DNA from: Nemertoderma westbladi
Taxonomy: Eukaryota; Animalia; Xenacoelomorpha
Assembly (NCBI GenBank): GCA_032718475.1
Contig: JAUCBJ010001408.1
Location: forward strand, 22,022 to 86,021
Length of the DNA stretch: 64,000 bases
Direction of reading: 5' to 3'
The notes under the pieces are model-generated. The model did not search any database. It was not told the DNA's origin and was given only the letters and a program-made list of their open reading frames with translations. Below, one piece after another: positions 8,367 through 28,830 of the stretch. Within the stretch, counting starts at the first letter, position 1, and every line of letters starts with the position of its first letter. A program made the position numbers and the translations under genes.

Positions 8367-8739
8367 CTGTTAGGAAATATTATTAATTGAAATTGTTTAT
8401 TAAATTCTGTAAATCCTCTGCCCACATCTGATCAGTGGTTGGGTTGGAGTTCTCTAGGGAAATCATTAAACGCCGGCATTTCGACCCAACATTTAGAGCA
8501 ATTAAATACTAACTATATTACGTCGTTGCTAATAAAATAGCACATTATAGCGTTACGGCACGAGTGATTTTGTGTAGTGAAATAATAAAACGAGGGCCGT
8601 AAAAGATTTAATGTGGTGGAATTATTTGTAGTTTTGCACTTAAACTTTCTAGAACAACCTAATAATGACGCGGTGACATACTGGATATACTGAAATACAT
8701 AGTAAATGTATGGCGTAGGGACATACTGAGAAATAATGT

Positions 8740-10967
8740 TATTCGAAGAGACGGTAACAATACCTGCAATATCCTACTGTAAAGTTTGTAAATCAAATCA
8801 TAAATCCGACCTTCTCACCAAAACAGTAAACTCTAAGTAAACGAATATATTGCAGTATCGATCTCTTATAACCGGTGAGGCAGAAAACAGTCTACGAGCA
8901 GACAAACTTCGATGAAACAAAATCCCGCACAGCGAATCCTAAAATCAGGCTGACTCACTGACGGACTAAGGGGCTCGTATACTTTGCCGCGGTGTGATTT
9001 ATATGGTTTGGGCAAAAGGGACGCTAGCTAGGTACAGAGGCAGATATTTGGAGATGTCTAACTAGCGAGCAAAGTGCAGTAAGGACGAAAGTTAATTTTA
9101 TATATTTTGAGGTGTAAATAATTTCTAACGCGCGCGTGTCAATTCTGAACGGTCAAAGCAGTTTTGCTCCTTCACATATATAATTACTGGGTACGGTGTG
9201 CATTTTACGAATATTCTAATTTTATAACTTGTAGGTCCAATACTCACGAATGATAAGGTTCCTTCCCCTCTTGCGTATTTCCAGGACTCAAATTCAGGCA
9301 TAAGGTTAGTACTACGCCCAGAATTCGGCAATTTTAGGTACCAGGTCCCTGATACTAAGAAGAGATGTGTTAGTTTACTACTGTAGGCGTACGGGTACTA
9401 ATAGCTATCCTGGCTCCTATCTAGAATTTTAGTCACCCAGGTAGTCCGGGTAACTTCCTATTAGGGCGTTGGCGGGGACACGGTAGATGTTAGTATATCC
9501 CTAATAGCCTCAATTTATTTGCGCCTAGTACGTAAACTGCCCTACCGCCTGAACGGTACAATCCCAATTCAGGTGAAAACACAGCAACCCCCCTAGCCTA
9601 CAAGTTCTAATACAATGGACACTGTCGTACGGCAAATAGTCACAGACGCACCTGTACTTAGCAAGAGTTAAGCGTACAGTTTGCTGCACCCTAACCAATG
9701 TGTATGCCTTGTACCGGTGTGCCTACGTCCTATCTGCGTACTAGTATTTGCCTGCGCTCTCCCTCCCCCCCGTAGGAATATGAAGGTCTACTGCGGTTTT
9801 TCCTGAATCAAGACAGTACAGTCCCTATGATGTAATTTTAGGCTTGCAGCGTGTCACTACGTCTACCTTTTGATCTTTTGGTCTTACACTTAGGTAGCAA
9901 GGATCGAACGCTGTCTAACCTTTCAGGCGATGGGCGAATAACTCTAGATGGTATTGCGGGTTGTCTCTCGTCTACATTCCCGTGATGTTCCCGTTCATTG
10001 CTGCGGCCCGATCTCTAGCCGGCCATCCTGTCCCTTAAGTTTGTTCACCGTAGTGAATCCATGATAAAACAGATAGAAAAGGGCTGAGTTTGACAAATAT
10101 TTCTAACTTTTATTACAAATCAAACAGATAAGATAATAAAGTCTCATTAGTACAGATTGAAGAAGTAGTAGGTTGATAAGAAGTGAACTAATGAACGAAA
10201 TCGCACCTTTATATACCGAATTTGTGCCGCAATCAATCGAGAAAATTCTCGATTGTTCTACAGGTTCTAACGGGGTTTTAAAGATAGCTATTGGTCCAGC
10301 TAATATATAACTTGCACGACATTGGTTACAATCAAATAACTACAGTCTCATTGGTACAGATAAATGCAATTAATTTGTAGCGGTTAATTTAAACGAGTTG
10401 AAATTCTGTACAAAAAATAATTCGCACTTACTAGGATTCGAACTTTCTTTCAATAGATAATTAAGTCTTATTCTAATAATAATAATAAAATACATGACAT
10501 AATACAATTAACGAACAAAGCAACACAAAAACAGCACTGACAATGGGAAACAACAAAGAGTTAAAATTCGTCTGCCAGCCCAACACCGCGCAGACCCGCC
10601 CCGTCACCAAATCCGAGAGCCCGCCAAGACCGACGTCCCCCTCGGAGGCAGAGGGAGTTGGACCGGAGGAGCGCGAACTGCAGCCGCCGGCGAACACCCC
10701 CCAGAACGCACGCGAGGCCCCTCTCTCTCATACCATCCCGCCTCGACACAAGTGTCTCGGCGAGATGGCGGATTAGGATTCGAACTCAATACCTACTACA
10801 CATATAATTTCCAACGCTCTACCGACTGAGCTACTGAACCACTTGACCGATAGATGTACAAATGATAGAACCAATACGAATGAGAACTCAAAGCAATCTT
10901 TACAAAGTTAATTCGAATAAAATAGAAATTTTGAAAATCCACGGCATTTAGGGAATATAATTCTATA
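8740..10967 (-). repeat. BEL-A 3' LTR (2228 bp, includes 342 bp absent from the 5' LTR)
   Basis: Direct repeat of 26723-28607. About 8 substitutions and one 1-bp indel seen by eye, plus the 342-bp block between 13-bp repeats at 10432-10444 and 10774-10786. Confidence 0.97.
10774..10840 (-). promoter_or_regulatory. tRNA-derived Pol III promoter (A and B box) in LTR U3; second copy at 28414-28480
   Basis: Minus strand GGTTCAGTAGCTCAGTCGGTAGAGC...GAGTTCGAATCC has an intact D-arm (GCTC/GAGC) and T-loop but no acceptor-stem 3' strand or anticodon stem, so it is not a tRNA gene. Confidence 0.7.
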
Positions 10968-10975
10968 CCGCTCCA
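10968..10975 (-). promoter_or_regulatory. Short polypurine tract (TGGAGCGG) abutting the 3' LTR
   Basis: The same GGAGCGG lies at the equivalent position in BEL-B (39756-39762). Confidence 0.65.
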
Positions 10976-11666
10976 TGAAAACAGGATATTATCGTGCATA
11001 AAATATACGGTTTTCACCAATAATCAATCAAACTATAGAATACTTAGGGCGTACTTACATATTTACAAATTAAATTTCAAATAATACTTCCTTTCTACGT
11101 AATGATTCGATACAAAATAATTACAAATTCAAACTTTACGTATTTAAGGCTTTACTAAGTAAGTACAATATAAATCTAAATTAAATTCACCAATATAAAT
11201 CTATTGCATCTCAAATATTGCATAAATTCAAACAATTACAAATACAAATAAATGAAAACAATAAGAAAGGCTCGCGAGTCTTCCATCTACTATTGCATCT
11301 CAAATATTGCATAAATTCAAGTAATTACAAATACTTTCGTACCTAAATGTAGATTGCATAAGTTTGGAATAATTACAAATATGAGTCTTTCTAAGCACAA
11401 AACTTTCTGACTATAAAACTTTCTAAATACAAAATATAACACTTTACAAATGAAACTATAAGAAAGGCCCACGAGTCTTCCATCTACTCTTACTTTCTAT
11501 TTCACTGTAAATACAAATACTGCTTATAAAATATAAATTGCATAATATTCGGAACAATATAAATTGCATAAGTTCGGAATAATCACAAATATAAAATATA
11601 AATTCAAATAAATCACAAAATCATAAGAAAGGCTCACGAGTCCTCCGTCCACCCTTGCCCTCCCTT

Positions 11667-14600
11667 TTATCGCTTAGTAGATCGAGCCCTGCCGCGTCCT
11701 CGAAAACTGCGCACAGGTGACTTTGCTCGCGATATGGGACTTGTGGGGCGAGTCACTGGTTTACTTGGGACGTTGAGAGACGGTGCGACTATTTCCTCAC
11801 AAATTCGTCTATTTGGCATCCCAAAACCTCGACCGATTCCTCGTGACCGATCAGTTGTCGCTACAGTTGGTAGAACGTCTGGGAACGCGCGAGAAGCGGA
11901 CGACGCAGACCCAAGAGTAGCTTGCGCCCCCTGTTGATCAGCTGGTGTATGTCCCGATCCTCCTACTGGTTCTCTTGGAAGTGATACCGTATCCCGAGTA
12001 ACTTGAATAGTCGGCTCAACTCCCTTGCGTTCTTCTACATTAATAATTTTCTTTAATTGTTGGCCCACTTTCTGGACCCGTATGATCCTACCCTGTCCGT
12101 CCTCCCGAGGGTGACATGCAGACGGCGCAACCGGAGTGGCTGGTATATTCGTCGCCTCTAGGACCTCCTCTTCCTCGAATACGCTCGCTCGTATACGTTT
12201 GTGGTAAAACGCGGCTCGGTACGCCCATGCGACGGTTAACCAAGCTCCTTTATTCCGCTTTTCGGTTCGGAAACGATCAAATTCACCATACGTGATACGA
12301 TTTACGACTTTCTGAAAATTCCACGTGTTTTTGTTATCTGGGTGAATCTGTAACAGATACTCGCGCACCACTCGGAATCCGCTGTCGTGGGGCAAAATAT
12401 CGACAACCTCGATAAGTTCGTCATACTGGGGCATAGCGGAGATGTATCCTTTCGACATCATCGTCTGGGGATTTACCGCCCAAAATCCGAGATGCGCTCT
12501 CATCGGAAACCGTCTTCTTTGTGCCGATACATGTTCGTCGGCTAAATCTTCCCACTCATCAAATAACTTCCTCACGAGTTTTACAGATTCGTGTTCATAA
12601 GGTATGTCTCTTAGTTGGCATTCAGATGCTCGATGTCCCTTTATATTGCAATAAGTACATTGAGCCATAAATCTCCAGCAAGTATAAAAGGTATGAGACC
12701 CTTGATCCCCACACCATCCACAGATTAGCTGAGTCGTAGTAATGTGCTTTCCACTGCACTTTGTCATATGATGTCCAGCGACGCCACATTTACTACACAT
12801 CGTATTAGCAGGGTACCACACTCGTTCGTATATAAGATCTCCAATCGGTCGAGCGCTTCCTCCCATACTATAATCGTAATCATCTGGGTCTATGGGTTGG
12901 TAGGTTTCTGAAGGTTGTATACAAACTATAGCATCTGTTGCTTCAAGTTGTCGAATCTCCGTCTGAGATTTCTTTGGGAGGTTCCTTTCTATCTCAAGAA
13001 GTTCCTCTAAAGGATCGTCGGCGATCGTAGTAGTTACTTCGAATTCATCACCAAGGTGACCGATAGGCGCGCGCGTCTGCCGTGATTCATCCGTAATTTC
13101 CACGATACGTTCTCCTTCATAGGGTAACAATGTAAACATAGATGGTCTTTCGATAAGAGATCCCGCACAGCAAAGATACACGTCTCGAAATATACTAAAT
13201 CCTGCTCGAGTAAAGGCATTACACTGAGCGTCGGAGTTGTAGAAGGGTTCAAGGAATCGTCTAAAAACGTCGGTACGAATTCTCCCTTCCATGTAGAACG
13301 TATGATCTTCTCCGAGACAAAGTGGATGTCTTTTGAGAGTCCGAGACACAATGTCGGCGATTAAGCAAACATTCACTGACGACTCTATTGCTAAATAATA
13401 TTGTAAGACCGCTCTTGGAGGTGACGTAATAGCCCAATACACGCATCCTCTCCATTTAAGCTGTGATTCAAACTCACTCATATCTGGAGTATCACCTTCT
13501 CCATAAGTTTCAATATACTTGTTTCTCTTATTTTCCTTATAATCCCAATTGAATAACAGGTAGGAAATGTATCCAGTTCCAGTCTTCTGAGTATTATACT
13601 CACGAAAATATCCCTGTTCTATAGACCACAGAATAAGAGGTCGAGTGTCGACGTATGGTGTCGGTAGTCGGTCATCGCTGTCCGTCATGCCGGCGAAGTC
13701 GCTAATTAAATCCTCCCTTACTCCTGATCCAACCTTTACAACAGTTTTATCTAAAATCATGTTTCTTACCATCTTCGGTAACATTCTAGCGTCGATATTA
13801 CAAGCTTGGTCCATCTTCTTTACTATGTCGGTGATAAGATGGTGTCGCTTTGTATTCGCTGGAGGTATCGGCATTCGTTTGTCGCTCCTCTGTCTACTGA
13901 AAACGTGCAGGACTCCGTCCGCCGCTCTAATTTGTATAGTCTTAGAAGTCAAACTCTGCTGATGACTGCCTCCCTCGTTATCGTAAAACATGTAACCGTT
14001 TTCCTGAAACGATCTAAACGTCCTAGTCCATTCATCCAACAATTCTTCCGAAGGTTGCCAAATCTTCTCTATATCCTTATCATCTTCGAAACGAATAACC
14101 TTACCTCGCCAATCTGCGGCAATATCTGTATCCGACTCGAAGGTTCCGGTTCCAATCCATAAACGAATCGTCTTGGTTAGATATCCTTTCAGATTACTCG
14201 GAGCTATATCGGCACCAGCTCTATCCAGTTCCTTGAAATCTTGAATATGAGGTGGAACGTTGTACACGACCTTTTGAGTAATATGTCTACGTAAATCATA
14301 TATCTTACTCATATCGCTGAAAACAACTGCAGGAAGAAACTCCAAGTTTGAAATGATTTCTGGATGATCCACGATGGGTATTTCGTACGTCGTATCCTGT
14401 CGGACTGGTATACTAATAGGAAAATTGAGTGTCGTACTCAATGGTTTCGTAGTTGAAGTACTATACGGTTGCATTTCTCTTGTCCTTTCCGGGGATGCAA
14501 TCTGTAGTCTCTGAATAACGTTTTGAGCAAAGTTTATGCTCTCGAAAACTTCCGGTGTCATCTCCTTAGCTGGAGTTTGATCGTGTGACGTCCAATGGCA

Positions 14601-15392
14601 AGGTAGGCTCGCGAGTCTTCCACCCCATTCTTCCATCTCACCTTTCTCGAAAGCCTTGTAGGCTCTGTATAGGCTAAGAGCTTCTTTCTTTTCGCGGGTT
14701 GACTGATTTGCCTCGTCCAGCGTAAGTTCAAATACATCGGGTTCAACAACCTTAGGTGGGTAAATGACAGTTTCTCCCGCCTTTGGTCCGGTCATAGCAA
14801 ATGAATGATATGGATTCGATAAAGGATACCCTCCTTCCTGGTAGCGTAGTTGTTGATGGTTCGAACACCTCACCAATATCGGTTCGGGATTTTCCTTATT
14901 CAAACGCATTGGAATCGCATTTCGTTGTTCGCGCATACAAGAACCGCATTGATAATAAAGTTTATAAACTGAAAATGCTTCCTTGGTTTCTCTATCGTCC
15001 CTTCGAGTTCGTCTGTAAAGATGCATTCCATCAAATTCATCTCTTACCGCGGGCATAGGTTCGTGCGCCTTTAGGTATTGCATGGTATGATACAAACGAC
15101 TAATTTCAGTATTGGGGTCTTCGCTAATGTCTCCCGTATCACACAAAGCGTCGTACGGGTACAGTTCATTGAAGGTTTGACACAAACTTTCGATTCTTTC
15201 GTTTAATGCGTTTTGTCTTCTCTTTAATACGTTCGAGTCATATTTAGTTCTCGCGAGTTTCGCTGTACTTTCCGATAATTCTTTTATACCAAATATAGTG
15301 TAGTCCTTGGCTCCAAATCTTTCGAATGGCGCTGCTGCCTCCTCTTGAATATCATATCCCCATCTCGGCTCTCCTTGTGTCCCTTTCTCCAT
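11667..15392 (-). CDS. BEL-A accessory ORF2 (1241 aa): DEDDy-type 3'-5' exonuclease domain plus three CCHC zinc knuckles
   Basis: ExoI FYDNEG..KTIQIR (~13930-14000). ExoII LPKMVRNMILDKTVVKVGSGVRED (~13705-13780). YVDTRPL. ExoIII W..SP...LQYYLAIE (~13380-13440). Knuckles CSKCGVAGHHMTKC, CGWCGDQGSHTFYTC, CTYCNIKGHRASEC (~12620-12800). No signal peptide or TM segment seen. Confidence 0.8.
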   Translation of the reverse strand: MEKGTQGEPRWGYDIQEEAAAPFERFGAKDYTIFGIKELSESTAKLARTKYDSNVLKRRQNALNERIESLCQTFNELYPYDALCDTGDISEDPNTEISRLYHTMQYLKAHEPMPAVRDEFDGMHLYRRTRRDDRETKEAFSVYKLYYQCGSCMREQRNAIPMRLNKENPEPILVRCSNHQQLRYQEGGYPLSNPYHSFAMTGPKAGETVIYPPKVVEPDVFELTLDEANQSTREKKEALSLYRAYKAFEKGEMEEWGGRLASLPCHWTSHDQTPAKEMTPEVFESINFAQNVIQRLQIASPERTREMQPYSTSTTKPLSTTLNFPISIPVRQDTTYEIPIVDHPEIISNLEFLPAVVFSDMSKIYDLRRHITQKVVYNVPPHIQDFKELDRAGADIAPSNLKGYLTKTIRLWIGTGTFESDTDIAADWRGKVIRFEDDKDIEKIWQPSEELLDEWTRTFRSFQENGYMFYDNEGGSHQQSLTSKTIQIRAADGVLHVFSRQRSDKRMPIPPANTKRHHLITDIVKKMDQACNIDARMLPKMVRNMILDKTVVKVGSGVREDLISDFAGMTDSDDRLPTPYVDTRPLILWSIEQGYFREYNTQKTGTGYISYLLFNWDYKENKRNKYIETYGEGDTPDMSEFESQLKWRGCVYWAITSPPRAVLQYYLAIESSVNVCLIADIVSRTLKRHPLCLGEDHTFYMEGRIRTDVFRRFLEPFYNSDAQCNAFTRAGFSIFRDVYLCCAGSLIERPSMFTLLPYEGERIVEITDESRQTRAPIGHLGDEFEVTTTIADDPLEELLEIERNLPKKSQTEIRQLEATDAIVCIQPSETYQPIDPDDYDYSMGGSARPIGDLIYERVWYPANTMCSKCGVAGHHMTKCSGKHITTTQLICGWCGDQGSHTFYTCWRFMAQCTYCNIKGHRASECQLRDIPYEHESVKLVRKLFDEWEDLADEHVSAQRRRFPMRAHLGFWAVNPQTMMSKGYISAMPQYDELIEVVDILPHDSGFRVVREYLLQIHPDNKNTWNFQKVVNRITYGEFDRFRTEKRNKGAWLTVAWAYRAAFYHKRIRASVFEEEEVLEATNIPATPVAPSACHPREDGQGRIIRVQKVGQQLKKIINVEERKGVEPTIQVTRDTVSLPREPVGGSGHTPADQQGAQATLGSASSASRAFPDVLPTVATTDRSRGIGRGFGMPNRRICEEIVAPSLNVPSKPVTRPTSPISRAKSPVRSFRGRGRARSTKR

Positions 15393-16050
15393 AATTAGGG
15401 TGTAGTTACATAATCATTACTACTAGAGGGAATACAACAGAGTTTGTAGTTAGTTGTGAGGAGACGTGAGAGTTTCGTCTGCCCTTTGGGCTTCAACAAC
15501 GCTCTAACCTCCTATCCATAGCCTAAGATCTAGGGTTTCTTTAATGACACGCTGCTTCTTATCTAAAATTTTTTGCCGAAGTAAAAACGAATTTGGGCTA
15601 AACTGGCCGTGAGACTAAAATACTCACCTTTTGATCCCAAACTATTATCAGAAAATAAGCAGTCAAGAATTAGTAATAAATATAGGGGAGTCTATTTTGA
15701 CGTAACTTATTGAAACAAGACCGTGTAAAATTTAATTAAAATTTTAAGAAAGGCTCGCAAGTCTTCCTCTCTTGTTTCTCTAATTTTAAGTTCCACCCGA
15801 CTGTACCCTGAAATCTATTCACTGGAGAAAATTTTAAAAATTTTCAAATCCAAATGGATTGTCTAAAATTTCGAAAATGTCTCAATATTGTGAGTTCCAA
15901 GTAGAATTCCATTTCTTATACCTACAAATCCCGCTCCTATGTGACACATAAGGGTACTACCCTCAATGTTCACATATAAAGACAATGGAATTCTACCGCT
16001 GTCCTTACTACGGTGTACAGGTACGTGGAAATCTATTTGTAAACTCCTAA

Positions 16051-18342
16051 TTATTTACTAGTATTAGGTGGAGATTTGTAGTCTCCAGACTCGTTACGAG
16101 TCTCTTCAAGAAGTACGAGACGTTGAGTCGGTCTGTCTACTGTACGACCGTCAATTGTCCGTACCGTCACAGTTCTTGTCACTCCATCCATAGATGGATG
16201 TGTGGCTAAAATTACACCTGTTATCCAGAAGCGTCTTTTTAGATTCACTTCCGCTAACAGCACGTGATCTCCCGGCTTTAATGCCCGGGTGTTATTGTAC
16301 CAAGTTGTTCTGGCAGAAATAGAGGGCAAATAATGGTTTTGCCATACTTCCCAGAATTTGTTAGCCAGTAGTTGCGTGATTTTCCACGCTTTTCTACCGT
16401 AGCTGTCGCTTTCTGTTGGAATAGAAATTGGCGTCAAAGTGGTCGGTGCCTGCATTAACAGGTGTGCCGGTGTCAAAGCAAACTGAGATTGTTTGTCATC
16501 GGGTACTAATACTATTGGTCTAGTATTTAGTATTGCCTCGATTTCAACAAACAATGTTGTCAGTTGGTCGTCTGTCAGTATGTGGTTTACTGGAATGACC
16601 TTTGCCATGGCTGTCTTTATAGATCTAATCAATCTCTCCCAGACTCCACCTCTCCAAGGACTATCTGGAGGATTAAACTTCCAAACAATCTTGTGAGGTT
16701 GTAGTTCGTTCGAGATTTGATCATGATCTAATTTCTTAAAGGCTCTAGCAATCTCATTCCGAGCACCAACAAAGTTTGTCCCTTGGTCTGAGTACAAGCA
16801 TTTTACTAGTCCGCATCTAGCGATAAATCGCCGCAGTGCTAGTATAAACGCGTTGGTGGAAAGATCCATCACACGTTCAATGTGAACTGCCCTACTGGAC
16901 ATACATGTGAAAATCAGTCCCCAGCGTTTTACTAGTATACGTCCACGTTTCGTATGTATGGGACCAAAGCAATCAATACCAGTCTCTGTAAAAGGTGGTC
17001 TGAATGCTTGAAGTCGTGCTTGTGGTAGTTCACTCAATTCCTGGGTACCTATTCTAGAATGTACCTTTTTACAAATAATACACGTACGTGTCACTGAACT
17101 TAATGCTTTACTGGGTCTAATTAATACAAATCTTATACGTAAGTAGGAAAGACAGTGGTGTCTTCCAGCGTGTTTCAGATGTAAATGTGCGTCCAGTATC
17201 ATTGCACGTTGTAGTTCGTGATGTTGCGGTATTATTATTGGGTACCTAAAGTTCGTGTTAAAGTCAATGTTTTGAAGCCGAGATTTATGACAAATTAAGC
17301 CATTATAAATAATCGGACTCCAACTCAGTATTGGTGACGACTTGATTGGTTGACCTTGATTTATGGATGTGAATTCGCGCGCGAAATATCGCAGTTGGTA
17401 ATGGCGAATTAATTTAATCTCACACCTGTCAATCTCAGCCAATGTAAGTCGACGTGTAAAGTCACGTTTGCCTTTAACGTATTGTACGAAACGTACAATC
17501 CACGCTAACTTTCGGCAAGCGTTTGACCAAGAGTCTGTTAAGTTTACAATCCGGTCGACGTGAGTATTGGTGACGTCATCAGGTAAGTCAATGGAGATTT
17601 TGGAAGGTTTTGAATTACTAGAAGGGCCCACGGGTCCGCCGGTAAGTATTCCCTTGTTGACTGTTGATCCGTCCGGGTCTACAAGTAATTTGTCCTTCTT
17701 CGTCTTCTTACCTTGATTGTCAGTACTTTGTAAGTCGATCGTTAATGGTGGTTTGAACTCTATGGGATCAGTGGGTTTCGGTAAACTTATTTTTCTGCCG
17801 ATATTAATCCCAGGTTTCACCATAGGTTGCAAGTTCGGTATGTCTCTTGAGCGCAAAGTAACACCTGTATTTACATTAGCGTAGGTACTACCCACATCTG
17901 TAATACATGAGGTTTCACCGTGCTTATGGTTGCTCAAGTGTGTCAAAATTGGTAGTTTGTCAATACAAGGCCGCTCCAATAGGGAAACTGCGGCTTTACT
18001 GTTAGTCGATACATTACTAATGTCCGGTAGAACATTTTGTGATGTTTCTGACAAAATGTCTAGTCGACTGTCTAGTAATGTGTCTGGCGATACGTCTGGT
18101 AACGTATCTGGTTGTTTGTCAATAGAAGGCCGCTCCAATAGGGAAACTGCGGCTTTACTGTTAGTCGGTGTGTTACTAGCGTCTGGTAGAATGTCTGGTT
18201 GACCGTCTAGTAACGTGTCTGGTTGACCATCTGGCGATATGTCTGGTGTAGAAAGGCTCGCAAGTCTTCCTCTCTTGACCTTTGAAGTTATCGCTTGTGT
18301 CCTTCTGGGCTCCTCCCCGAGGCGCACCCACGAGGCGGACAC
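16051..18342 (-). CDS. pol: BEL-A integrase-containing ORF (low-complexity linker plus HHCC and DDE integrase)
   Basis: HLHLKHAG...CIICKK, GIDCFGP, SDQGTNFVGA, GGVWERLIRSIK, LNTRP, LTPAHLL. The true start is unknown. Confidence 0.92.
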   Translation of the reverse strand: MSASWVRLGEEPRRTQAITSKVKRGRLASLSTPDISPDGQPDTLLDGQPDILPDASNTPTNSKAAVSLLERPSIDKQPDTLPDVSPDTLLDSRLDILSETSQNVLPDISNVSTNSKAAVSLLERPCIDKLPILTHLSNHKHGETSCITDVGSTYANVNTGVTLRSRDIPNLQPMVKPGINIGRKISLPKPTDPIEFKPPLTIDLQSTDNQGKKTKKDKLLVDPDGSTVNKGILTGGPVGPSSNSKPSKISIDLPDDVTNTHVDRIVNLTDSWSNACRKLAWIVRFVQYVKGKRDFTRRLTLAEIDRCEIKLIRHYQLRYFAREFTSINQGQPIKSSPILSWSPIIYNGLICHKSRLQNIDFNTNFRYPIIIPQHHELQRAMILDAHLHLKHAGRHHCLSYLRIRFVLIRPSKALSSVTRTCIICKKVHSRIGTQELSELPQARLQAFRPPFTETGIDCFGPIHTKRGRILVKRWGLIFTCMSSRAVHIERVMDLSTNAFILALRRFIARCGLVKCLYSDQGTNFVGARNEIARAFKKLDHDQISNELQPHKIVWKFNPPDSPWRGGVWERLIRSIKTAMAKVIPVNHILTDDQLTTLFVEIEAILNTRPIVLVPDDKQSQFALTPAHLLMQAPTTLTPISIPTESDSYGRKAWKITQLLANKFWEVWQNHYLPSISARTTWYNNTRALKPGDHVLLAEVNLKRRFWITGVILATHPSMDGVTRTVTVRTIDGRTVDRPTQRLVLLEETRNESGDYKSPPNTSK

Positions 18343-19498
18343 CTTTCCACCACCCCTGGGGCCAGTCCAACAGATGTTATCATCAGACCGGGCCGGAGGG
18401 TGGCCTGATGCTTCCCGGGTTCTGTTTTCGGTCCCCCGATCACACCAGCACAGCTCGTCGAACGTGTAGCCAGATGGGCGGCTACTGTCAACTTACTGTG
18501 GCCTGACTGTACATTGAGCCAACTCAAAGTATAACAAAGAGTCAACCGGCAGGTGGACCAGTCGATAGCGATCGAGCACCAAGGTCGCCCTTGGGCCTAA
18601 CCGACGGTCTTGTCCCAAGCGGGCTTGCGCTACCCAACATGGAATATTGACACGTTTTCACCTGCCTCGCCGGCAATATTGAGGGGACACCGTTCCTCAA
18701 CAATATTGACTAGCTCGAAAGCTAGGAACAAGTAACCACTTACCCGTCCTGTACACGTGTACTCAACAGATGTTCACGAAATCAAGTACACTACGGTAAA
18801 CACAAAATCTGACACATACCATGCACACACAGAGGACATAATCGGGTAAAGACAAAATCGGGGTCAAAATCGGGAAAGACAAATCAGAGGGGACAAAATT
18901 GTATCGACCAAGCACCAAGTCGAGAGTACCTTATTTTGCCGTCAGGGCAAAATAACTTTGTGTGCACAAAGTATGCTGGGGCGCAGTAAAGTATGGTCCT
19001 ACTAATACCAGCGGCGTCTTGTCCAACTGGCAAGGGTTCCCATACCCACTCGCAGTGGCCACACATACAATCACGTGTACTCACGTACCCACAGCAACAG
19101 AAAACTCAAGACCCGACGGTTTATTCCAATGCCACCAAAGACCAAGTCAGCTGAACATGGAGACAATAACATATAGTATCAAAAAAACGGAACAGCTGAC
19201 GGTCAATGGAACCATCCAAGCCCCAAGCAAACTGCCACTGATCGCCCACATACAAAACATAGTCCACGCCACATGAGCCACAAATCACGCCATGCCACCA
19301 CCCCTACTGTGTACAGGACTGGCAGTACGGCAACAGGCCGACTAGACGGTACCACGGCACCATGGCAATTCATGGTTCGTTAGACACGAGGGCCATCAGT
19401 ATCTCCCTTGCACTTAGGCGAAGAGATTTAACGTGCCCCCAGACCCTCACGAGTCCGCCGCCGCCTGTTAAAGACACCCCTATAGAGACCTCACCTCT

Positions 19499-20398
19499 TT
19501 AGGTATCTTTCCATTTCGCCTTCGGTTTTTTCTTGAGTTTTGCCACCGTCGTCCTTTTCTTCGCCTTCCCCTTTTTTGGTTTCTTGATTTCAGCGTCCTT
19601 AGGGATGGTGTTAGACTTGTTGTCGTATAACGGCGGCCAATGTAGTGTTGAACCTTGTAAGAATTGTGGTCCGTGTTGCCAAAATTCTTTGTTCTCCGGT
19701 TTACAGAATTCCTCAGGCATCATTCCTCGCGACGCAATATCAGCTGGGTTTTGTGGTCCGGGACAATGTCGCCAATCCTCTTTTATTGAACGGTCTAGAA
19801 TTTCCGCGCGACGGTTAGCTACGAATGTCTTGAATTCTAGTGTGTCGTTGTTTATGTAAAATAAAACCAACGTCGCGTCAGTCCAATAAAATATCTGTAA
19901 ACTTGACTGTAGTTCCGTCTGTATGAGGTTCACAATGGTGGTTGACAGTGTTGCGGCTTGTAGCTCAGCTCGTGGTGTCGTCATATACTTAGTAGGCATG
20001 GTCTTAGCCTTAGAAGTAATGAGCGAAACATCGAACTCGTCTGAGTCTACTTGTCTGCGCAAGTACGCTGCCACACCAAAACCGTTGTCACTGGCGTCAG
20101 AAAAACAGTGCAATTCCAAGTTGTCAGGAAATGTACTTTGTAATGGAAAGTAAACCCTGGGTATGAAATAATCCTCTAACGAAGATAATTCCGCCTCCCA
20201 GGTCTTCCATAAGTCCACTTGGTCTGATGAGATCGGCTCGTCCCATGTTAGTCCATCCTTCCATATACTGCGCATATAAATGCGGGCTTGCAGTATCACT
20301 GGACTGATGAATCCTAACGGATCGAACAATCGGCTCAATTTTGACAAGCATGATCTCTTTGTCAGTATGTTCTCTTGACTGTCCAGTCTCACTTTCAC
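19499..20398 (-). CDS. pol: BEL-A RT-connection/RNase H segment, in frame with gag-pol after a TGA
   Basis: TKRSCLSKLSRLFDPLG, LHCFSDAS, PRAELQAA, YWTDATLVL, FVANR, WRHCPGPQNPADIASRG, WQHGPQFL. Confidence 0.92.
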   Translation of the reverse strand: MKVRLDSQENILTKRSCLSKLSRLFDPLGFISPVILQARIYMRSIWKDGLTWDEPISSDQVDLWKTWEAELSSLEDYFIPRVYFPLQSTFPDNLELHCFSDASDNGFGVAAYLRRQVDSDEFDVSLITSKAKTMPTKYMTTPRAELQAATLSTTIVNLIQTELQSSLQIFYWTDATLVLFYINNDTLEFKTFVANRRAEILDRSIKEDWRHCPGPQNPADIASRGMMPEEFCKPENKEFWQHGPQFLQGSTLHWPPLYDNKSNTIPKDAEIKKPKKGKAKKRTTVAKLKKKPKAKWKDT

Positions 20399-23300
20399 TC
20401 AAAAGTTGTCTGTGTTTGGGTCCCAAAAGAGCCCCAACACCTTAGTCGTCGGTAGTGGTTCGAACTCTAGGTCTATGTCACCACCTCCACGCTCAGTAGT
20501 CCCGAATGAGTCTACTAATTCGGCACTGTTTGAGGCGAATTTGGTGAGGTTAAAACCTCCGCCCGCTAAGCAGTCCCGTAATTGATGTGCTACTGTGTCG
20601 CAACTCTGTAAACCGTCGTCTACATAAAAGTCACGTTCTACGATTTTAATTATCTCTGGGTCATATAGATGTTTCTGATCCCTAGCGGCCTGCTTTAGGG
20701 CGTACATCGTGCAATTTGGGCTGTCTCTGGCACCGAAAACGCGAACTTGCATTTGGTAAGTCGCTGGTGGTAGACTTAAGTCTCCTTCCGGGTACCAGAG
20801 GAACCGCAAACTGTCTCTGTCTCGCTCTAACGCTCTCACTTGGTGAAACATCGCTTCAACGTCACAAGTAAAAGCTACTTGACGCTGACGGAAGCGCATA
20901 ATCACCCCCATAAGATAATTATTCATGTTTGGTCCATCCATCAACTTACTATTGAGGGACATTCCCTCAAACAGAGCCGCACAGTCATTGACTACGCGTA
21001 CTTTATCTGGTTTGTCGGGGTGTCTCACATAGTGATGTGGCAAGTAATAGGTTTGGTCAGTCACTATCTCCGGGTTAGTCATTCGGATAGCATATCCCTT
21101 AGTCAAATACGTCTCCATCTGAGTGTTGTACTGCAGATGGGCTTTCTCGTCCTTTAATAGACGTTGCCGTATTGAGTGTAGACGTCTCAAAGCCAGTGGA
21201 TAGTTGTTTATAAGTTTAGGACTTTGGCTACGCCATAACATCCCTACCTCATAATGTCCGTCTTTCGTCTGGCGGATAGTATCTTCCATGATCTTCAGAG
21301 ATTGTTTCTCCTGTTCCGACATACAAGGTTCGTAGCTACCAGGTTCAGCTGTATCTTGTTCTAACCACCTGATAGTCTTCTCCGTTAATTCTTTGTCCAG
21401 TGCAGCTTGTTCCACTTGATGAATTTTCAACGCGTCATCATCGATATCGACGGGCACTGTTGAGGTTATTGGGGTAGGTAGACTCGCAAGCCTATCATCT
21501 GTCGTCGATGGAATCTCTAGCTGACTCGTCTTCTCCCCAAGTTTTAAACTCACCTGGTGGGTTAGCTGCTCCTTGTGACTTATCATACTAGTTACATGTC
21601 TGTCATGTTTTGTCGACTGTAGCGTAGTATGGTTCACGTCGTGTGAAAAGGAATGAATTGAATTTGTAGTTAATAAACTACATGTACTCTGTACATCGAC
21701 TTCCTCGTCACTTACGTCTAGTGTGCGCACAGGCGCTCGAGTATACCACCCTATCGGCGTTCTGCAGGCGTATGCGTTTCCCGCTACAACTGCCGATGGT
21801 CTGGTTTCCCACACCTGATGTAGGTTGAATTGGTCTGTCCCGATCAGCATTGCTACCGATCTATAATTGACAGGACATTCGGGTACACCAAGGTGTCTGA
21901 AATACTTACGGTCCTCTAGAGATTGTTCCGGCACTGGACCTAGTAGGTTACTAAAGTCCTTCGTAGCCGCAAAGGTTAGATCTTTAAAGGGCAACAAAGA
22001 CCTCTCCCTCTCGCTGTGTTGCGATTTCGGAAGAAGAGAGTCTAAGTCTAACTTAACTCGTGTCACTGGTATTGCACGCTGTCCGTGCATACTACTTACT
22101 GTATAACTGACCTGCTTACCTTGTCTGAGATCCGTCACGACGTCAGCTATCTTTTCATCCACGTAACTGTGAGATGAGGCTGAATCTAGAATCGCGTAGA
22201 TCCTCTTACTCCCCTTTGTGCCAGTGATCTTAATCGGGATTACACTGAATCCCTTCAGTTGGTCAGTGGTCAGAAGCGCGATCGACGGTTGTTCGTCTCC
22301 ATTGGAATATTCGTCGTCGTCTTCTGATTCTTCGTCCGACGATCCGGATTGTTCTGAGAAGCAATCCTCAATATGGGTCACGAAGGTTGGAGTCGTTTTC
22401 GATTCTCGTTTCCTGTAGGCCGCATCACATCTTGCTGCTGCTTCCGGGTGTTCCCTGGCGAAGCGTTTCGTCGGCGTGTGGCTGTCTGTGTGGAGCAGAC
22501 CGTCGTGGTTGCGTCCACAGGATGGACAAGTGTCGGTATTTGGGCAATCTTTACGGACGTGTCCGTGTCGCGTACACCGCCAACAAGAGTCCAGTGGCCG
22601 TATCTGCAGCTGTCGTTCTTCCGAGTTCAACTCGCGAAATTGTCGACAACCTCGTAACTTGTGACCGATATACCGCTTGCCTAGATGCTCGCAGTATTGG
22701 CAGCCGCTGAAGTCGGTACTGAGTTGTTGTCTCGTCTGTTTTGTCCCAATGGGCGCAGATACCCTACTACCGTCGGAGAATTGTCGGGTTTCAGTCGATG
22801 TGGTGTAAGTGGCCGTCTTAGTGGATGTTGTCTGGGGTTTTTGTCGGTTGGAGGATGGCAATGTGATTCCTTCTGCCACGATGTGCTGGTCGGTGTAGTT
22901 AGATCTAGTTTCTACTACTGCCTCCCTGTATATTAAAAGGTACACATCTTCTAATTTTAAGAATCCTCCCCGCTCTTCTCGCTGGTATTCGACCTTTCTC
23001 CACTCCCGACAAAGTCGATGGTGGAGTCGTCCTATGATCTTTAATAGGACTGTAGGGGTATTCCCGTAATCAAGTTGTCCAATGGATCGTAAAGTAGTGA
23101 TAGCGTTCTTGATTTCGTCGGCCAGTTTTAATAAGTCGACGGGTTTAGTGATAGCCCCTCCCTTACAGAGTTCCTCTATTACTGACCTGGCCATACTAAC
23201 TGTACCTCCGTATATCGAAGTTAAACGATCGTACGCTAGTTCGAAAGCGTCTGGTACACCAACGAAGGTCTCTGCCAAACGTTTAGGTTCTCCTGACAAC

Positions 23301-25912
23301 GTTTGGAGCAGGTAATTGAACTTCTCCCGTGATGTAAAGGCGCACACGGCGATCTGGGATTCGATATAGTCTACGAAGGTATGCCAGTGTTTTGAGCTAC
23401 CGGAAAACTTCGGTGGTTGTTGTACCGGCAATCCCTGTCTGGCTGCGAATTTTGCTATCTCCTCAGCAACGTTCAGAGTTTCGCGTCCTTGGTTGGTACA
23501 CTGGTTGATGTTCTCCCTTCTTGGCGCTTTTCCCTGATACGATGTGGGGTTTGAAGGTACCGGTCTTTGTGGTGCCTTCGGGTGTCTATTGTGTTCGAAT
23601 TCGGTGTTCCTCGAACTATCGGTTTGAACTTCCTCCAGACGCTCCTCGATCTGAGCCAACTTGTTGACAACTGGTCGCAGAATGTCGGCGAACTGTTGTG
23701 TACTAATTGCGTCCGTTGGTTGTAACGCCTTCTGTGTTGGTGTATTCTGTGGAGGATTGTCTGCAAAGGAGTTGTCTGAATGCTCGCGTTTATATTCATC
23801 GGCCGCCCCTGTTCTAAATACCTCGCGTTTCGGGTAATCCGATTCGCTCGAAGTACTATTATCATCTGGATATGGTGGTCGACGTGCTCGCGTCCGTTGC
23901 GTCGTACTAATTCTAACGGTTCGTTTCGGAACATCGTCTCGCTTTCGTTGTTCGGTAGGCTCACAAGTCTTCCTCGAAGTCGTAGATTGCGATGTAAACT
24001 GGTTGAGCGGTCGCGTATCCACTGTTCTCCGTTGTTCGGTAGGCTCACAAGTCTTCCTCGAAGTCGTAGATTGCGATGTAAACTGAACCGGTGGTCGGAT
24101 GACCGCGTTTGAATCCAAAGGCCTTGTAGGTCGAAACGTCATTGGGTAAGCGTAGTGTGTAACGGGTTTAGGTGTCAAAGGTGGACTCACCTGTTTAGTC
24201 GTCAGTAGTGCAGGTCCAGTCAACAAACTACTACGATCTGTAATCGGCGGGTTACTTACCTTGACTTTCGGAATAGGCGACGACGTTGCTCTTGGCGGTG
24301 TAAACTTGTCCGGAATAACAAACCTGTGTTCCGTCGCACCATGGATAGGAGAAATATCACTACTACCCGCAATCGAAACAGGTTCCTTAGTCGTAACCGG
24401 TGCAAACATATGCGTTACCTGTGGGAATCGTTGACACACGTCTTTTACTAATTGTCGTTCCCGTCCGGGTGCTCCTACACTTCCTTCTTTCTTCCGTTCC
24501 TGAATTTGGCGATGTCTTACCTCTAACTGGTCCAAATCATGTCCGTCACGAGATCTCATCGATCGATCGCGGGCCTTTTGATCCAAATCTTCCTCGGCGT
24601 TCGCTAATTCTCTCGCCTTCTTCTCGAGTTCGAAATGAAGTTTAGCTGTCTTCTCTCGTTGTTCCGTTTGTTGTCGTTGCGCCTCAAACTCCGCTTGTCG
24701 TATAGCGGATTGAGCTTTTATTTGCCGTGTTTTCATTTCGGCCCGCGCTTCCGAAACTAACCTTTCTCGTTCTAATTCTGCCGCTGCCGTTTGTCGCTCT
24801 AGTTCGGCCGCTGCGTTTTGTCGCTCCAACTCAGCCGCTGCGTTTCGTCGCTCTAACTCGGCCGCTGCCGCTTGTCGTTCCAACTCAGCCGCTGCCGCTG
24901 CCGCTTGTCTGGCAATGTCTACTTCTAACCTTTCTACTTCAGCTGCTTCTAATTCAGCTTGTTCCTGTAGATGAGAGATTCTTGCTATATTCGCAACGCG
25001 TAGCTTCTCTTCCTCTACTGCTGCCTGCATCACTAGAAGTTGAGCTTGTTCTTCCATTTCTTGTCGTTGTCGGTGGAATTCTTGCTGTTGTCGAGCAACT
25101 TCTGACGTGACTATACTTCCCTCGCAGATTTCGCTACGAATACTTACCAACGATTGGTCCAGTATTCCCGGTGCCGATTCAATTCGTACGGGTGAAATTT
25201 CCCTCGTATATTCCGGCACGGTTTCCCAATCTCCGACGTCTTCGCCGCACATACGTAAGTGGTCCGTCAGGTGTTTCAATTGTCCATCAAGTCGGTACAG
25301 TTCCTGTTCTTCCTCGGGCTGTAATAATTCGTCCGAAACTGATTCACCTAACAACTGGTCCGCTTGTTCCTGTTGTATCTGTCTAATCGTCGACTTAAAC
25401 TGAATCAGTTTCTCTCTAGCGATCATCAGTTTCTCGAGGATTCTAAGTTGAGTATCCATGTCCTGTCTCTGTCTAGCTAGATCTTGTAGACCAATTAGGT
25501 TATCTACGGACTTGTGTACTCTACTTTGTACTCTAACCTGGAGGGTGTAGAACTCGAATCGAGACATCGGAGTGGTCAACTCGTCTAATATGCGTTGGCC
25601 TTCCCCAATACTCCTGGTTATATGCGCCATGTAACCACCGACGCTTCTAATCACACTTTCTGTGCTTCCTGCTGAACTTACCATTTCCGTTTCCCTGTAT
25701 CTAGGTTGCGGAACAGTTAGAAAGTCCTCGGTCCTGCCGTCGCCTCGTACTATGGCATCCGGTACTCCCGTTGGATGTACTGGTGACGCACACGGTGTAG
25801 GTTCGGTAGGCTCGCGAGTCTTCCCCTGTTGTTCTTCCGCTGCTGACTTATCTCCATCACATAAGTCATAGTCGGTTTGTGTATTCTTCGTATAGTCTTG
25901 TTTGTCACTCAT
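20399..25912 (-). CDS. gag-pol: BEL-A Gag-protease-RT polyprotein (1837 aa, ends at an in-frame TGA)
   Basis: Coiled-coil N-terminus. Gag PKFSG..W..F, EKFNYL. Three Cys/His motifs ending CPSCGRNHDGLLH. Protease ILDSASSHSY. RT YYLPHH, DVEAMFHQV, FYVDD. Confidence 0.95.
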   Translation of the reverse strand: MSDKQDYTKNTQTDYDLCDGDKSAAEEQQGKTREPTEPTPCASPVHPTGVPDAIVRGDGRTEDFLTVPQPRYRETEMVSSAGSTESVIRSVGGYMAHITRSIGEGQRILDELTTPMSRFEFYTLQVRVQSRVHKSVDNLIGLQDLARQRQDMDTQLRILEKLMIAREKLIQFKSTIRQIQQEQADQLLGESVSDELLQPEEEQELYRLDGQLKHLTDHLRMCGEDVGDWETVPEYTREISPVRIESAPGILDQSLVSIRSEICEGSIVTSEVARQQQEFHRQRQEMEEQAQLLVMQAAVEEEKLRVANIARISHLQEQAELEAAEVERLEVDIARQAAAAAAELERQAAAAELERRNAAAELERQNAAAELERQTAAAELERERLVSEARAEMKTRQIKAQSAIRQAEFEAQRQQTEQREKTAKLHFELEKKARELANAEEDLDQKARDRSMRSRDGHDLDQLEVRHRQIQERKKEGSVGAPGRERQLVKDVCQRFPQVTHMFAPVTTKEPVSIAGSSDISPIHGATEHRFVIPDKFTPPRATSSPIPKVKVSNPPITDRSSLLTGPALLTTKQVSPPLTPKPVTHYAYPMTFRPTRPLDSNAVIRPPVQFTSQSTTSRKTCEPTEQRRTVDTRPLNQFTSQSTTSRKTCEPTEQRKRDDVPKRTVRISTTQRTRARRPPYPDDNSTSSESDYPKREVFRTGAADEYKREHSDNSFADNPPQNTPTQKALQPTDAISTQQFADILRPVVNKLAQIEERLEEVQTDSSRNTEFEHNRHPKAPQRPVPSNPTSYQGKAPRRENINQCTNQGRETLNVAEEIAKFAARQGLPVQQPPKFSGSSKHWHTFVDYIESQIAVCAFTSREKFNYLLQTLSGEPKRLAETFVGVPDAFELAYDRLTSIYGGTVSMARSVIEELCKGGAITKPVDLLKLADEIKNAITTLRSIGQLDYGNTPTVLLKIIGRLHHRLCREWRKVEYQREERGGFLKLEDVYLLIYREAVVETRSNYTDQHIVAEGITLPSSNRQKPQTTSTKTATYTTSTETRQFSDGSRVSAPIGTKQTRQQLSTDFSGCQYCEHLGKRYIGHKLRGCRQFRELNSEERQLQIRPLDSCWRCTRHGHVRKDCPNTDTCPSCGRNHDGLLHTDSHTPTKRFAREHPEAAARCDAAYRKRESKTTPTFVTHIEDCFSEQSGSSDEESEDDDEYSNGDEQPSIALLTTDQLKGFSVIPIKITGTKGSKRIYAILDSASSHSYVDEKIADVVTDLRQGKQVSYTVSSMHGQRAIPVTRVKLDLDSLLPKSQHSERERSLLPFKDLTFAATKDFSNLLGPVPEQSLEDRKYFRHLGVPECPVNYRSVAMLIGTDQFNLHQVWETRPSAVVAGNAYACRTPIGWYTRAPVRTLDVSDEEVDVQSTCSLLTTNSIHSFSHDVNHTTLQSTKHDRHVTSMISHKEQLTHQVSLKLGEKTSQLEIPSTTDDRLASLPTPITSTVPVDIDDDALKIHQVEQAALDKELTEKTIRWLEQDTAEPGSYEPCMSEQEKQSLKIMEDTIRQTKDGHYEVGMLWRSQSPKLINNYPLALRRLHSIRQRLLKDEKAHLQYNTQMETYLTKGYAIRMTNPEIVTDQTYYLPHHYVRHPDKPDKVRVVNDCAALFEGMSLNSKLMDGPNMNNYLMGVIMRFRQRQVAFTCDVEAMFHQVRALERDRDSLRFLWYPEGDLSLPPATYQMQVRVFGARDSPNCTMYALKQAARDQKHLYDPEIIKIVERDFYVDDGLQSCDTVAHQLRDCLAGGGFNLTKFASNSAELVDSFGTTERGGGDIDLEFEPLPTTKVLGLFWDPNTDNF

Positions 25913-26711
25913 TTCGGTAGTTGTAAGTCAAGTAAAGTGAGTGTCAAAGTATCGAGTTTACCGTATTTATATCTAAACGGTACTAATTACAGTCTTATAA
26001 AATTAGCCTACCGGCCGATTTTATAGCAGATGGATAAAATTAGCCTAAACGGCCAATTTTACAGCAAATAAATGTCACGGAATAAGTATATAATAAAATT
26101 AGCCTAGTGGCCAATTTTATAACAAATAAATCGGATAACGATATGCGTTATCAAAAAGGTAAATTAAATACAATAATACGGACTAATTCAGCAATGAACA
26201 AAGAAATCATACGGAATGCATAAATACTTGAGACAGTGGAACCCACAATAATTTTAACTAATACGGTAATGCCTAACTTATTTATGCAACTTTTCGAACT
26301 CACCCACTCCAATAATTCTCCAGAAAAACAGATTCCCAGATACAAACCGGACGTGAACCTTTCCGTTTTCAGCGTTGCGGACGAAGCGCGATTTTCCCAA
26401 CCAAAGTAGTTGGGTTATCTATCTCCCAAACTTGCTAAACACGGTCTTGCTCCCGTTACAGTCTAGAAATGAGTCCTGAATCCTGAAAAACAAAAGAGTT
26501 AGGTTTTACTTTACGAAAAATTTTGTACCGGTACAATATGGTATTTAAACCCTTTTAAACACCGGTATTCAATTCCAAAATATTTTACGCGCGGTTCAAA
26601 TCAAATTTTATTTCAAAAAATTAGCACTTAGCTAATCAAATACGAACTTTTACCTCAAAATACAAAATTTTCAAAATAACTTTAGTCCTACCGAACCGTA
26701 GTTCAGTAAAA

Positions 26712-26722
26712 CATATTCCTAC
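26712..26722 (-). promoter_or_regulatory. Non-tRNA primer-binding site of BEL-A (GTAGGAATATG), complementary to LTR-internal 27754-27764
   Basis: No TGG-initiated PBS. The 11 nt abutting the LTR are the exact reverse complement of 27754-27764 and 9772-9782. Confidence 0.75.
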
Positions 26723-28607
26723 TATTCGAAGAGACGGTAACAATACCTGCAATATCCTACTGTAAAGTTTGTAAATCAATTCATAAATCCGACCTTCTCA
26801 CCAAAACAGTAAACTCTAAGTAAACGAATATATTGCAGTATCGATCTCTTATAACCGGTGAGGCAGAAAACAGTCTACGAGCAGACAAACTTCGATGAAA
26901 CAAAATCCCGCACAGCAAATCCTAAAATCAGGCTGACTCACTGACGGACTAAGGGGCTCGTATACTTTGCCGCGGTGTGATTTATATGGTTTGGGCAAAA
27001 GGGACGCTAGCTAGGTACAGAGGCAGATATTTGGAGATGTCTAACTAGCGAGCAAAGTGCAGTAAGGACGAAAGTTAATTTTATATATTTTGAGGTGTAA
27101 ATAATTTCTAACGCGCGCGTGTCAATTCTGAACGGTCAAAGCAGTTTTGCTCCTTCACATATATAATTACTGGGTACGGTGTGCATTTTACGAATATTCT
27201 AATTTTATAACTTGTAGGTCCAATACTCACGAATGATAAGGTTCCTTCCCCTCTTGCGTATTTCCAGGACTCAAATTCAGGCATAAGGTTAGTACTACGC
27301 CCAGAATTCGGCAATTTTAGGTACCAGGTCCCTGATACTAAGAAGAGATGTGTTAGTTTACTACTGTAGGCGTACGGGTACTAATAGCTATCCTGGCTCC
27401 TATCAAGAATTTTAGTCACCCAGGTAGTCCGGGTAACTTCCTATTAGGGCGTTGGCGGGGACACGGTAGATGTTAGTATATCCCTGATAGCCTCAATTTA
27501 TTTGCGCCTAGTACGTAAACTGCCCTACCGCCTGAACGGTACAATCCCAATTCAGGTGAAAACACAGCAACCCCCCTAGCCTACAAGTTCTAATACAATG
27601 GACACTGTCGTACGGCAAATAGTCACAGACGCACCTGTACTTAGCAAGAGTTAAGCGTACAGTTTGCTGCACCCTAACCAATGTGTATGCCTTGTACCGG
27701 TGTGCCTACATCCTATCTGCGTACTAGTATCTGCCTGCGCTCTCCCTCCCCCCGTAGGAATATGAAGGTCTACTGCGGTTTTTCCTGAATCAAGACAGTA
27801 CAGTCCCTATGATGTAATTTTAGGCTTGCAGCGTGTCACTACGTCTACCTTTTGATCTTTTGGTCTTACACTTAGGTAGCAAGGATCGAACGCTGTCTAA
27901 CCTTTCAGGCGATGGGCGAATAACTCTAGATGGTATTTCGGGTTGTCTCTCGTCTACATTCCCGTGATGTTCCCGTTCATTGCTGCGGCCCGATCTCTAG
28001 CCGGCCATCCTGTCCCTTAAGTTTGTTCACCGTAGTGAATCCATGATAAAACAGATAGAAAAGGGCTGAGTTTGACAAATATTTCTTACTTTTATTACAA
28101 ATCAAACAGATAAGATAATAAAGTCTCATTAGTACAGATTGAAGAAGTAGTAGGTTGATAAGAAGTGAACTAATGAACGAAATCGCACCTTTATATACCG
28201 AATTTGTGCCGCAATCAATCGAGAAAATTCTCGATTGTTCTACAGGTTCTAACGGGGTTTTAAAGATAGCTATTGGTCCAGCTAATATATAACTTGCACG
28301 ACATTGGTTACAATCAAATAACTACAGTCTCATTGGTACAGATAAATGCAATTAATTTGTAGCGGTTAATTTAAACGAGTTGAAATTCTGTACAAAAAAT
28401 AATTCGCACTTACTAGGATTCGAACTCAATACCTACTACACATATAATTTCCAACGCTCTACCGACTGAGCTACTGAACCACTTGACCGATAGATGTACA
28501 AATGATAGAACCAATACGAATGAGAACTCAAAGCAATCTTTACAAAGTTAATTCGAATAAAATAGAAATTTTGAAAATCCACGGCATTTAGGGAATATAA
28601 TTCTATA
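26723..28607 (-). repeat. BEL-A 5' LTR (1885 bp), termini TATAGAA...CGAATA
   Basis: Direct repeat of 8740-10967. Candidate TATATAAA near 28190 and AATAAA near 28093 on the minus strand. Confidence 0.97.
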
Positions 28608-28830
28608 AATGTCGCACTGCGATATAAAGTTAGGAAATATGTCGCCCTGGCGATTTGGTAGTGCGAAATTAATTCCACACAAATAAATAAAAACATAATA
28701 ATAAAACAGAAGGACTTCAACACGGCAAATAATTATGTTACAAATAATTACTGGTTAAGAAACTAACATCGTTCTTTAGCTCATTATTTACATCGACTTG
28801 GTTAGTTAGGTTTGTATTTAAATATTTTAC

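Follow-up and report, generated by a model that had tools for sequence, protein, structure and literature searches.

What primes reverse transcription in an oversized retrotransposon whose 5' long terminal repeat (LTR) is not followed by a tRNA-type site? The question is raised by element A, a BEL/Pao copy of 19.9 kb (8740-28607, minus strand) in a 64,000-nt stretch of Nemertoderma westbladi DNA (assembly GCA_032718475.1, contig JAUCBJ010001408.1, positions 22,022 to 86,021), hereafter the window, which also holds its sister, element B. An earlier, sequence-only reading of the window had joined the size of A, its ends, a primer-binding site (PBS) complementary to its own LTR, a second open reading frame (ORF2), a Pol III cassette and a dispersed 17-nt motif into one replication programme, in which, for example, an exonuclease encoded by ORF2 could pare element RNA annealed at the PBS down to the paired stretch. 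Our analysis suggests a different answer: on balance, the primer of A is probably a piece of its own LTR RNA, and this mode of priming is spread across a wide lineage and is probably independent of ORF2. Annotated features of A and B given below lie on the minus strand, except for the target-site duplications (plus strand) and the two nested insertions (strand unspecified).

No tRNA-type TGG was found after the 5' LTR of A (26723-28607; 1885 bp, TAT...ATA). The PBS directly after this LTR (26712-26722) is not of the tRNA type, and at offset 0 it has an exact, contiguous 11-nt complement within the LTR itself (LTR 844-854; 27754-27764), our candidate self-primer and the match that had been reported before. 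A host RNA, such as a tRNA half or another small RNA, might nevertheless prime A, the LTR match then being a structural switch or mere chance: in an LTR of 1.9 kb, chance alone may produce a match of 10-11 nt, and 20 of 5000 shuffled PBS regions also reached 11 nt.

Element B was said to share the self-complementary PBS, and it does so given one placement of its LTR. Its 5' LTR (53086-54291; 1206 bp, TGT...ACA) is followed by a PBS (53073-53085) with an exact 13-nt complement, again at offset 0, at LTR 430-442 (53850-53862), 30 nt past a strong splice acceptor; 13 nt was reached in 1 of 5000 shuffles. This self-complement holds only if the 5' LTR ends at 53086, an end that we inferred because the 3' LTR of B (39073-39756) is cut off by satellite DNA, to which it is fused, so that the two LTR copies match over just 684 bp. 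Position 53086 was preferred for its ACA, for the 13-nt complement at offset 0 and for three contigs of sequencing run X4 whose long loose ends start at 53082-53085 (among 24 loose ends listed of 942). The other ends tried were 53609, where the LTR-LTR match stops (best complement 5 nt), 51880 (9 nt, a length that 24 of 300 shuffled sequences also gave) and 52957 (11 nt). Read depth steps about twofold near 53080 and is high again below 52350, and was not used as evidence for the end. Both A (11 nt) and B (13 nt) carry a PBS complement of at least 10 nt to their own LTR, as Tf1-type elements do; a split, intron-interrupted primer was sought in both and not found.

Next, we examined relatives of A, recovered from one metagenome scan (25 of 64 parts), from which the best 80 of 222 were kept and the 54 loci with enough DNA upstream of the reverse transcriptase (RT) were scored. 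They are ordinary BEL/Pao elements of 6-7 kb. A self-complementary, non-tRNA PBS was present in 21 of the 54, 17 of them split and four contiguous. In the split type, the PBS starts with GT, 0-6 nt past ACA or ATA, and its complement of 10-13 nt is complete only once a GTRAG...YAG intron of 67-371 nt is taken out of the LTR sequence. As judged from these sequences, only spliced RNA would pair with the PBS in such relatives. Shuffling the PBS tails gave a split match in none of 1080 rounds and a contiguous match in 15 of 1080. Five of the 54 loci had an unbroken complement of 10 nt or more, or four after L072 was dropped, its 12-nt match being a local hairpin; L069 resembles a decayed split type and was left out of the count. 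For L005, L013, L015, L016, L023, L030, L031, L039 and L052, the LTR ends were set by both LTR copies. A TGG-type PBS at a plausible site was found in six of the 54 (L059, L061, L075, L076, L048 and L062), which group in one RT clade apart from the self-complementary relatives: the two elements labelled tRNA-type on the tree sit with the four other TGG-type loci in this clade of 11 rows (support 95).

The 17 split-type loci represent 12 families with seven distinct PBS starts, and across relatives the letters of PBS and primer differ while their pairing is kept. In a cross test of 18 elements, only 8 of 306 pairings of a PBS with a foreign LTR reached 10 nt, and seven of these eight joined elements with the same PBS; L022 was missed in this test because its acceptor filter was stricter than that of the main scoring. 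Covariation thus extends over seven split-type and six contiguous PBS sequences, with the complement exact at the exon junctions, a pattern that a conserved host primer would not be expected to leave. We accordingly regard priming of A by a host RNA as improbable, and covariation strongly supports a predicted tRNA-independent, self-complementary PBS.

It appears rather probable that a broad BEL/Pao lineage self-primes, with the spliceosome building the primer at an exon junction of the LTR; A and B are intron-free and may gate priming by splicing upstream. In the proposed mechanism, RNA polymerase II (Pol II) would start upstream in the LTR, and an LTR segment, made by splicing in most relatives and contiguous in A and B (where upstream splicing perhaps exposes it), would anneal to the PBS. 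As in Tf1, cleavage by the element's RNase H on the 3' side of the duplex would leave the 3'-OH of the primer, and strand transfer would use the stretch between this cut and the downstream poly(A) site. Priming in cis would require that the 5' LTR copy lose its intron while the 3' copy retains it. If the 3' copy were spliced now and then, intron-free types such as A, B, L005, L035, L039 and L052 would result.

Several signals in A can be placed on this scheme. A TATA box (LTR 411) and an initiator (Inr)-like site (LTR 442) mark, by sequence, the likely Pol II start (28166-28197). A predicted LTR intron (27786-28089; donor at LTR 519, acceptor before 823) ends 21 nt upstream of the primer, and the contiguous primers of A and B both lie 21-30 nt past a predicted splice acceptor. 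With TATA/Inr at 411/442 and a further donor at LTR 707, the primer of A appears to be internal, not the 5' end of the transcript. Cis self-priming of A needs a poly(A) signal 3' of the primer, that is, the AATAAA at LTR 1106 (27497-27502), a role that we assign from the geometry of relatives: the only AWTAAA of the LTR sits 3' of the primer in seven of nine family representatives, and the other two have none. Folding, which is unreliable for long RNA, gave the A duplex a pair probability of ~0.9-1.0 if the RNA begins near the primer or lacks the 519-822 intron.

The main rival is priming in trans, in which a separate short LTR RNA (spliced in the split types) would anneal to the PBS of unspliced genomic RNA, its 3' end then being processed, by cutting or trimming, through RNase H or a nuclease of the host. 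Trans priming avoids the need to splice only one LTR copy and so explains how the intron is inherited, and in 10 split-type loci the 3' LTR does still contain the intron. The internal position of the primer also fits, as do the very many LTR copies of A and its second AATAAA at LTR 512, upstream of the primer. By contrast, relatives have their poly(A) signal 3' of the primer, a placement that strand transfer in cis demands and that trans priming tolerates but does not require, and the sole experimentally demonstrated mechanism, that of Tf1, operates in cis. We consider the trans route unlikely, although less so than a host primer, and favor self-priming in cis.

We then asked whether ORF2 has any part in priming. 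ORF2 (11667-15389; 1240 aa) carries two CCHC zinc knuckles (aa 865 and 911), and no transmembrane anchor of the kind looked for in an env protein was found in it (top 19-residue hydropathy 1.38). Of the exonuclease/zinc-knuckle frame described earlier in place of env, the knuckles are confirmed; the nuclease label is probable but weak by sequence. An Atlas search with aa 400-760 placed 24 of 30 matches in the PF01612 set of 3'-5' exonucleases (score 0.92, 166 shared features), the top two matches being unnamed; the N-terminus gave no usable Atlas lead (best 0.79). NCBIfam returned a weak match to DnaQ epsilon (E 0.022, far under the cut-off), Pfam returned none, and no homologue was found among word-indexed proteins, 1.84 billion representatives, PDB sequences, PHROGs or viral contigs. 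Acidic residues at D470/E472, D560 and Y665/E669 are compatible with the usual DEDDy spacing. Two single-sequence structure models (predicted local distance difference test, pLDDT, 31) were not used. Taken together, it is likely, as far as such profile and spacing matches can tell, that ORF2 carries a nuclease fold, a probable DEDD-type 3'-5' nuclease domain at about aa 465-670 (13990-13380).

Two candidate introns bear on how ORF2 is expressed. One GT-AG intron runs from LTR 707 into the leader (26483-27901) and removes both primer and PBS; the other (15423-26303) removes gag-pol and yields a subgenomic ORF2 RNA. Each joint is present in an X4 contig, and both sit on canonical splice sites, connecting LTR, leader and ORF2. 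ORF2 is likely made from spliced RNA because the second joint removes 15423-26303, 33 nt before the ORF2 start; an ORF2 RNA that also carried the upstream joint would lack primer and PBS.

That ORF2 trims the annealed RNA has some appeal: the protein resembles 3'-5' exonucleases (the PF01612 and DnaQ matches above), its zinc knuckles could carry it into particles, and an internal primer requires processing of its 3' end. However, the same PBS layout occurs without ORF2 in B, which has no 3' ORF longer than 71 codons within 3063 bp, as had been noted before. It also occurs in all 14 self-complementary relatives checked, where the integrase-to-3' LTR gap is 121-369 bp and leaves no room for ORF2 (54-369 bp in all 16 loci measured). 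ORF2 is likely not the primer-maker, because many relatives of ordinary size share the PBS layout without it. ATA right ends likewise occur without ORF2, and the accessible parts of the paper on bdelloid elements with DEDD ORF3s (PMC5408684) do not mention priming. We therefore consider it very doubtful that ORF2 is the trimming enzyme for the primer of A, and more doubtful still that trimming, size, ends, cassette and motif form one programme. The sequence-only reading had itself named widespread self-complementary PBSs without ORF2 as the outcome that would count against it; scoring the relatives and placing them on an RT tree gave that outcome (21 of 54 self-complementary; 14 of 14 checked without room for ORF2), and the proposed coupling is not supported. 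ORF2 is probably an accessory passenger, independent of priming. It would be a later accessory gene in the env position, expressed from the spliced subgenomic RNA, and probably a DEDD-type RNA nuclease or RNA-binding derivative that acts on the small-RNA defence of the host or in ribonucleoprotein handling; the anti-silencing role that the sequence-only reading offered as its alternative may thus still apply.

A number of points weigh against our reading of self-priming and of ORF2. Primer, cleavage and strong-stop product were none of them observed in this sequence-only analysis. The primer is internal, unlike that of Tf1, and cis priming fails if the AATAAA at LTR 512 is used. The pair probability of the A duplex was 0.0 from the unspliced TATA start, and the B duplex folds only from the first base of the primer, in an element whose LTR end is itself placed by inference. 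The primer intron was never seen spliced: the joined form of the primer was contiguous in none of the 17 split-type relatives' own loci. No call was made for 26 of the 54 relatives, many of which lack the LTR portion and which were not inspected singly. Each X4 joint is a single contig (short side 27 and 30 nt), and whether X4 is DNA or RNA was guessed. As for ORF2, no significant match to a hidden Markov model backs the nuclease label, and Glu stands in its third motif in place of the usual Asp.

The identity of A itself is well established. The pair of direct LTRs (3' LTR, 8740-10967) differs by eight substitutions over 1884 aligned bases (99.6% identity) and by a single 1-bp indel, and the 3' LTR has in addition gained an insertion of 342 bp. 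AATGT is duplicated on either side (8735-8739 and 28608-28612, plus strand), whose flanking repeat recurs without the element at 2794-2932, there with a single AATGT, resembling an empty site; TAT...ATA are therefore the true boundaries of A. BEL/Pao termini are usually TG...CA. These are absent from A, but its TAT...ATA can be read as a variant within the family because relatives L023 (with a 5-bp duplication) and L005, both ordinary elements, end TGT...ATA. A short purine-rich tract (10968-10977), nearly the same in B, adjoins the 3' LTR.

The coding region consists of a gag-protease-RT frame (20399-25912; DUF1759, zinc knuckle, YVDD), an RNase H part of pol (19499-20398; Peptidase_A17) and an integrase part (16051-18290; H2C2, DUF5641). 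The frame is broken near 20399, and pol is further disrupted by a 1213-bp nested insertion (18291-19503) that contigs of runs X1, X3 and X4 skip. This insert lies between A and T, begins TC and ends TAGG, a Helitron-like pattern. The two inserts account for ~1.55 kb, and A measures ~18.3 kb without them. PF03564, PF05380 and PF18701 scored above the Pfam cut-off; PF17921 scored below it in A and above it in B. An RT search gave 402 matches at E<=1e-30, and those that carry a name belong to marine invertebrates and a schistosome; among the 120 listed, identity to A was 39-47% and nearly all carried PF05380. No RT relatives were found in viral contigs. Domain set, RT grouping, direct LTRs and short target duplication all place A in BEL/Pao. 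Within it, A is probably near Sinbad/Suzu; the RT tree contains no reference elements and no outgroup, and its deep forks stay open. Contigs of four sequencing runs cover 30 of 30 bins of A, ORF2 bins included, and ORF2 therefore belongs to the family; a subfamily of roughly 82% identity was also seen among the contigs. A is a young, abundant, oversized BEL/Pao retrotransposon, and the description of a ~20-kb element with near-identical LTRs and TAT...ATA ends holds, with the proviso of the nested insertions and broken pol. A frame for a fibrinogen C-terminal domain (7677-8369, minus) lies 370 bp from the 3' end of A.

Two further features had been drawn into the supposed programme, and nothing was found that links either to priming. 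The first is a tRNA-like Pol III cassette in U3 (28395-28482). Its A box, B box and T run are present; as a tRNA gene it was not upheld, ARAGORN calling no genes and Rfam giving no real match. In the 3' LTR, the 342-bp insertion (10432-10773) interrupts the cassette exactly at its B box and is accompanied by a duplication of 13 bp. It is found in this one LTR of A only and opens with a strong hairpin, and perhaps represents a short retroelement with a preference for tRNA-like T-loops as targets. Fourteen identical bases occur in A (28466-28479) and B (54036-54049), in opposite orientations, at an A-box-like start, and the LTRs of A and B share two more short motifs in the same orientation.

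The second feature, the near-palindromic 17-nt motif, is dispersed as described: nine sense-strand copies (11268-25824; starts at 11268, 11465, 11630, 14605, 15751, 18254, 23957, 24041 and 25808), representing about six independent sites, plus one two-mismatch copy on the opposite strand, or 10 where 0.06 are expected. The copies are spread over two reading frames and non-coding DNA, and the motif was found neither in B nor in any of the 80 relative loci. The Pol III-like RNA pairs weakly with it, and has an 8-nt match to the leader that is near chance by a rough hand estimate. Ten nucleotides of the leader just 3' of the PBS (26696-26705) are complementary to the bases that follow three gag copies of the motif (23950, 24034 and 25801), a possible long-range RNA contact. 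As a guess, the motif serves in dimerisation or protein binding.

Element B has its gag-pol in a single open frame (42819-50906) with no ORF2 after it. A quick RT tree pairs it with A as its sister (Shimodaira-Hasegawa-like approximate likelihood ratio test, SH-aLRT, 95; long branches), the two RTs being 47% identical. B is flanked by a 2.2-kb higher-order satellite of 146-bp units (35000-39075 and 54292-64000), which its 3' LTR joins over three shared bases and without target duplication. Over 51300-53700, summed contig depth in runs X1 and X3 is ~10-20 times higher for the B family than for the A family, a depth that does not equal copy number.

How, then, does A compare with known systems? 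No report of self-priming or of a splice-built primer in BEL/Pao was found in a search whose reach stopped short of subscription journals, Repbase, GyDB and bioRxiv supplements; the accessible parts of PMC3118150, PMC554778, PMC3601003, PMC13524379 and PMC5443660 mention neither. Primer sites of BEL/Pao are seldom discussed; among Gypsy elements, self-priming is described for Tf1/sushi, and in Copia it has been predicted for some members. If our reading is true, a splice-junction primer would make the onset of reverse transcription depend on RNA processing by the host and would free the element from tRNA supply and from PBS-aimed silencing by tRNA fragments; strong-stop cDNA is then predicted to carry exon-exon junction RNA.

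Among BEL/Pao elements (Belpaoviridae) of marine invertebrates, A shares the order DUF1759, Peptidase_A17, H2C2, DUF5641 and the 5-bp duplication, and differs in its TAT left end, in ORF2 and in size: the median BEL/Pao element measures 7.4 kb, A ~18.3 kb. Even so, PMC3118150 (supplement 9) lists de novo elements with maxima of 16-23 kb, and LTRs of up to 2.4 kb. In its ORF2, A has a counterpart in bdelloid rotifers, where Juno/Vesta (DEDDy ORF3) and Terminons likewise carry a DEDD-type exonuclease ORF in the env position (accessible parts of PMC5408684 and PMC6431247). As far as PMC5408684 could be consulted, Juno/Vesta ORF3 has DEDD changed to DEED and is typically made from a spliced message, so that one acidic residue is altered in both proteins. 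However, Juno and Vesta are Gypsy-type and end TG...CA, whereas the ORF2 of A has 1240 aa, two CCHC knuckles and no detectable homologue. With its probable nuclease at the site of env, A would extend the rotifer Gypsy pattern to BEL/Pao.

In priming, the closest likeness is to Tf1/Tf2 and the Tf1/sushi group of Ty3/gypsy, which like A lack a tRNA PBS and pair ~11 nt beside the 5' LTR with their own LTR RNA; Tcn1 and the plant elements TAR, Houba and Osr-1 are predicted self-primers comparable to A. A also shows what the part consulted of PMC6317226 asks of plant self-primers in silico, a match that begins 0-5 bp beyond the LTR and is 10 bp or longer. In Tf1, the first 11 nt of the RNA serve as primer (PMC7175516, in part), whose 3' end is made by RNase H (PMC7175516 and PMC10085805, parts available); by contrast, the primer of A appears to be internal, that of most relatives is split by an intron, and the pol of A is of BEL/Pao, not of a Ty3/gypsy chromovirus. 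A does not look like a new integrated system, and its priming trait is best read as a lineage-wide variant of Tf1-type self-priming with a splicing twist.

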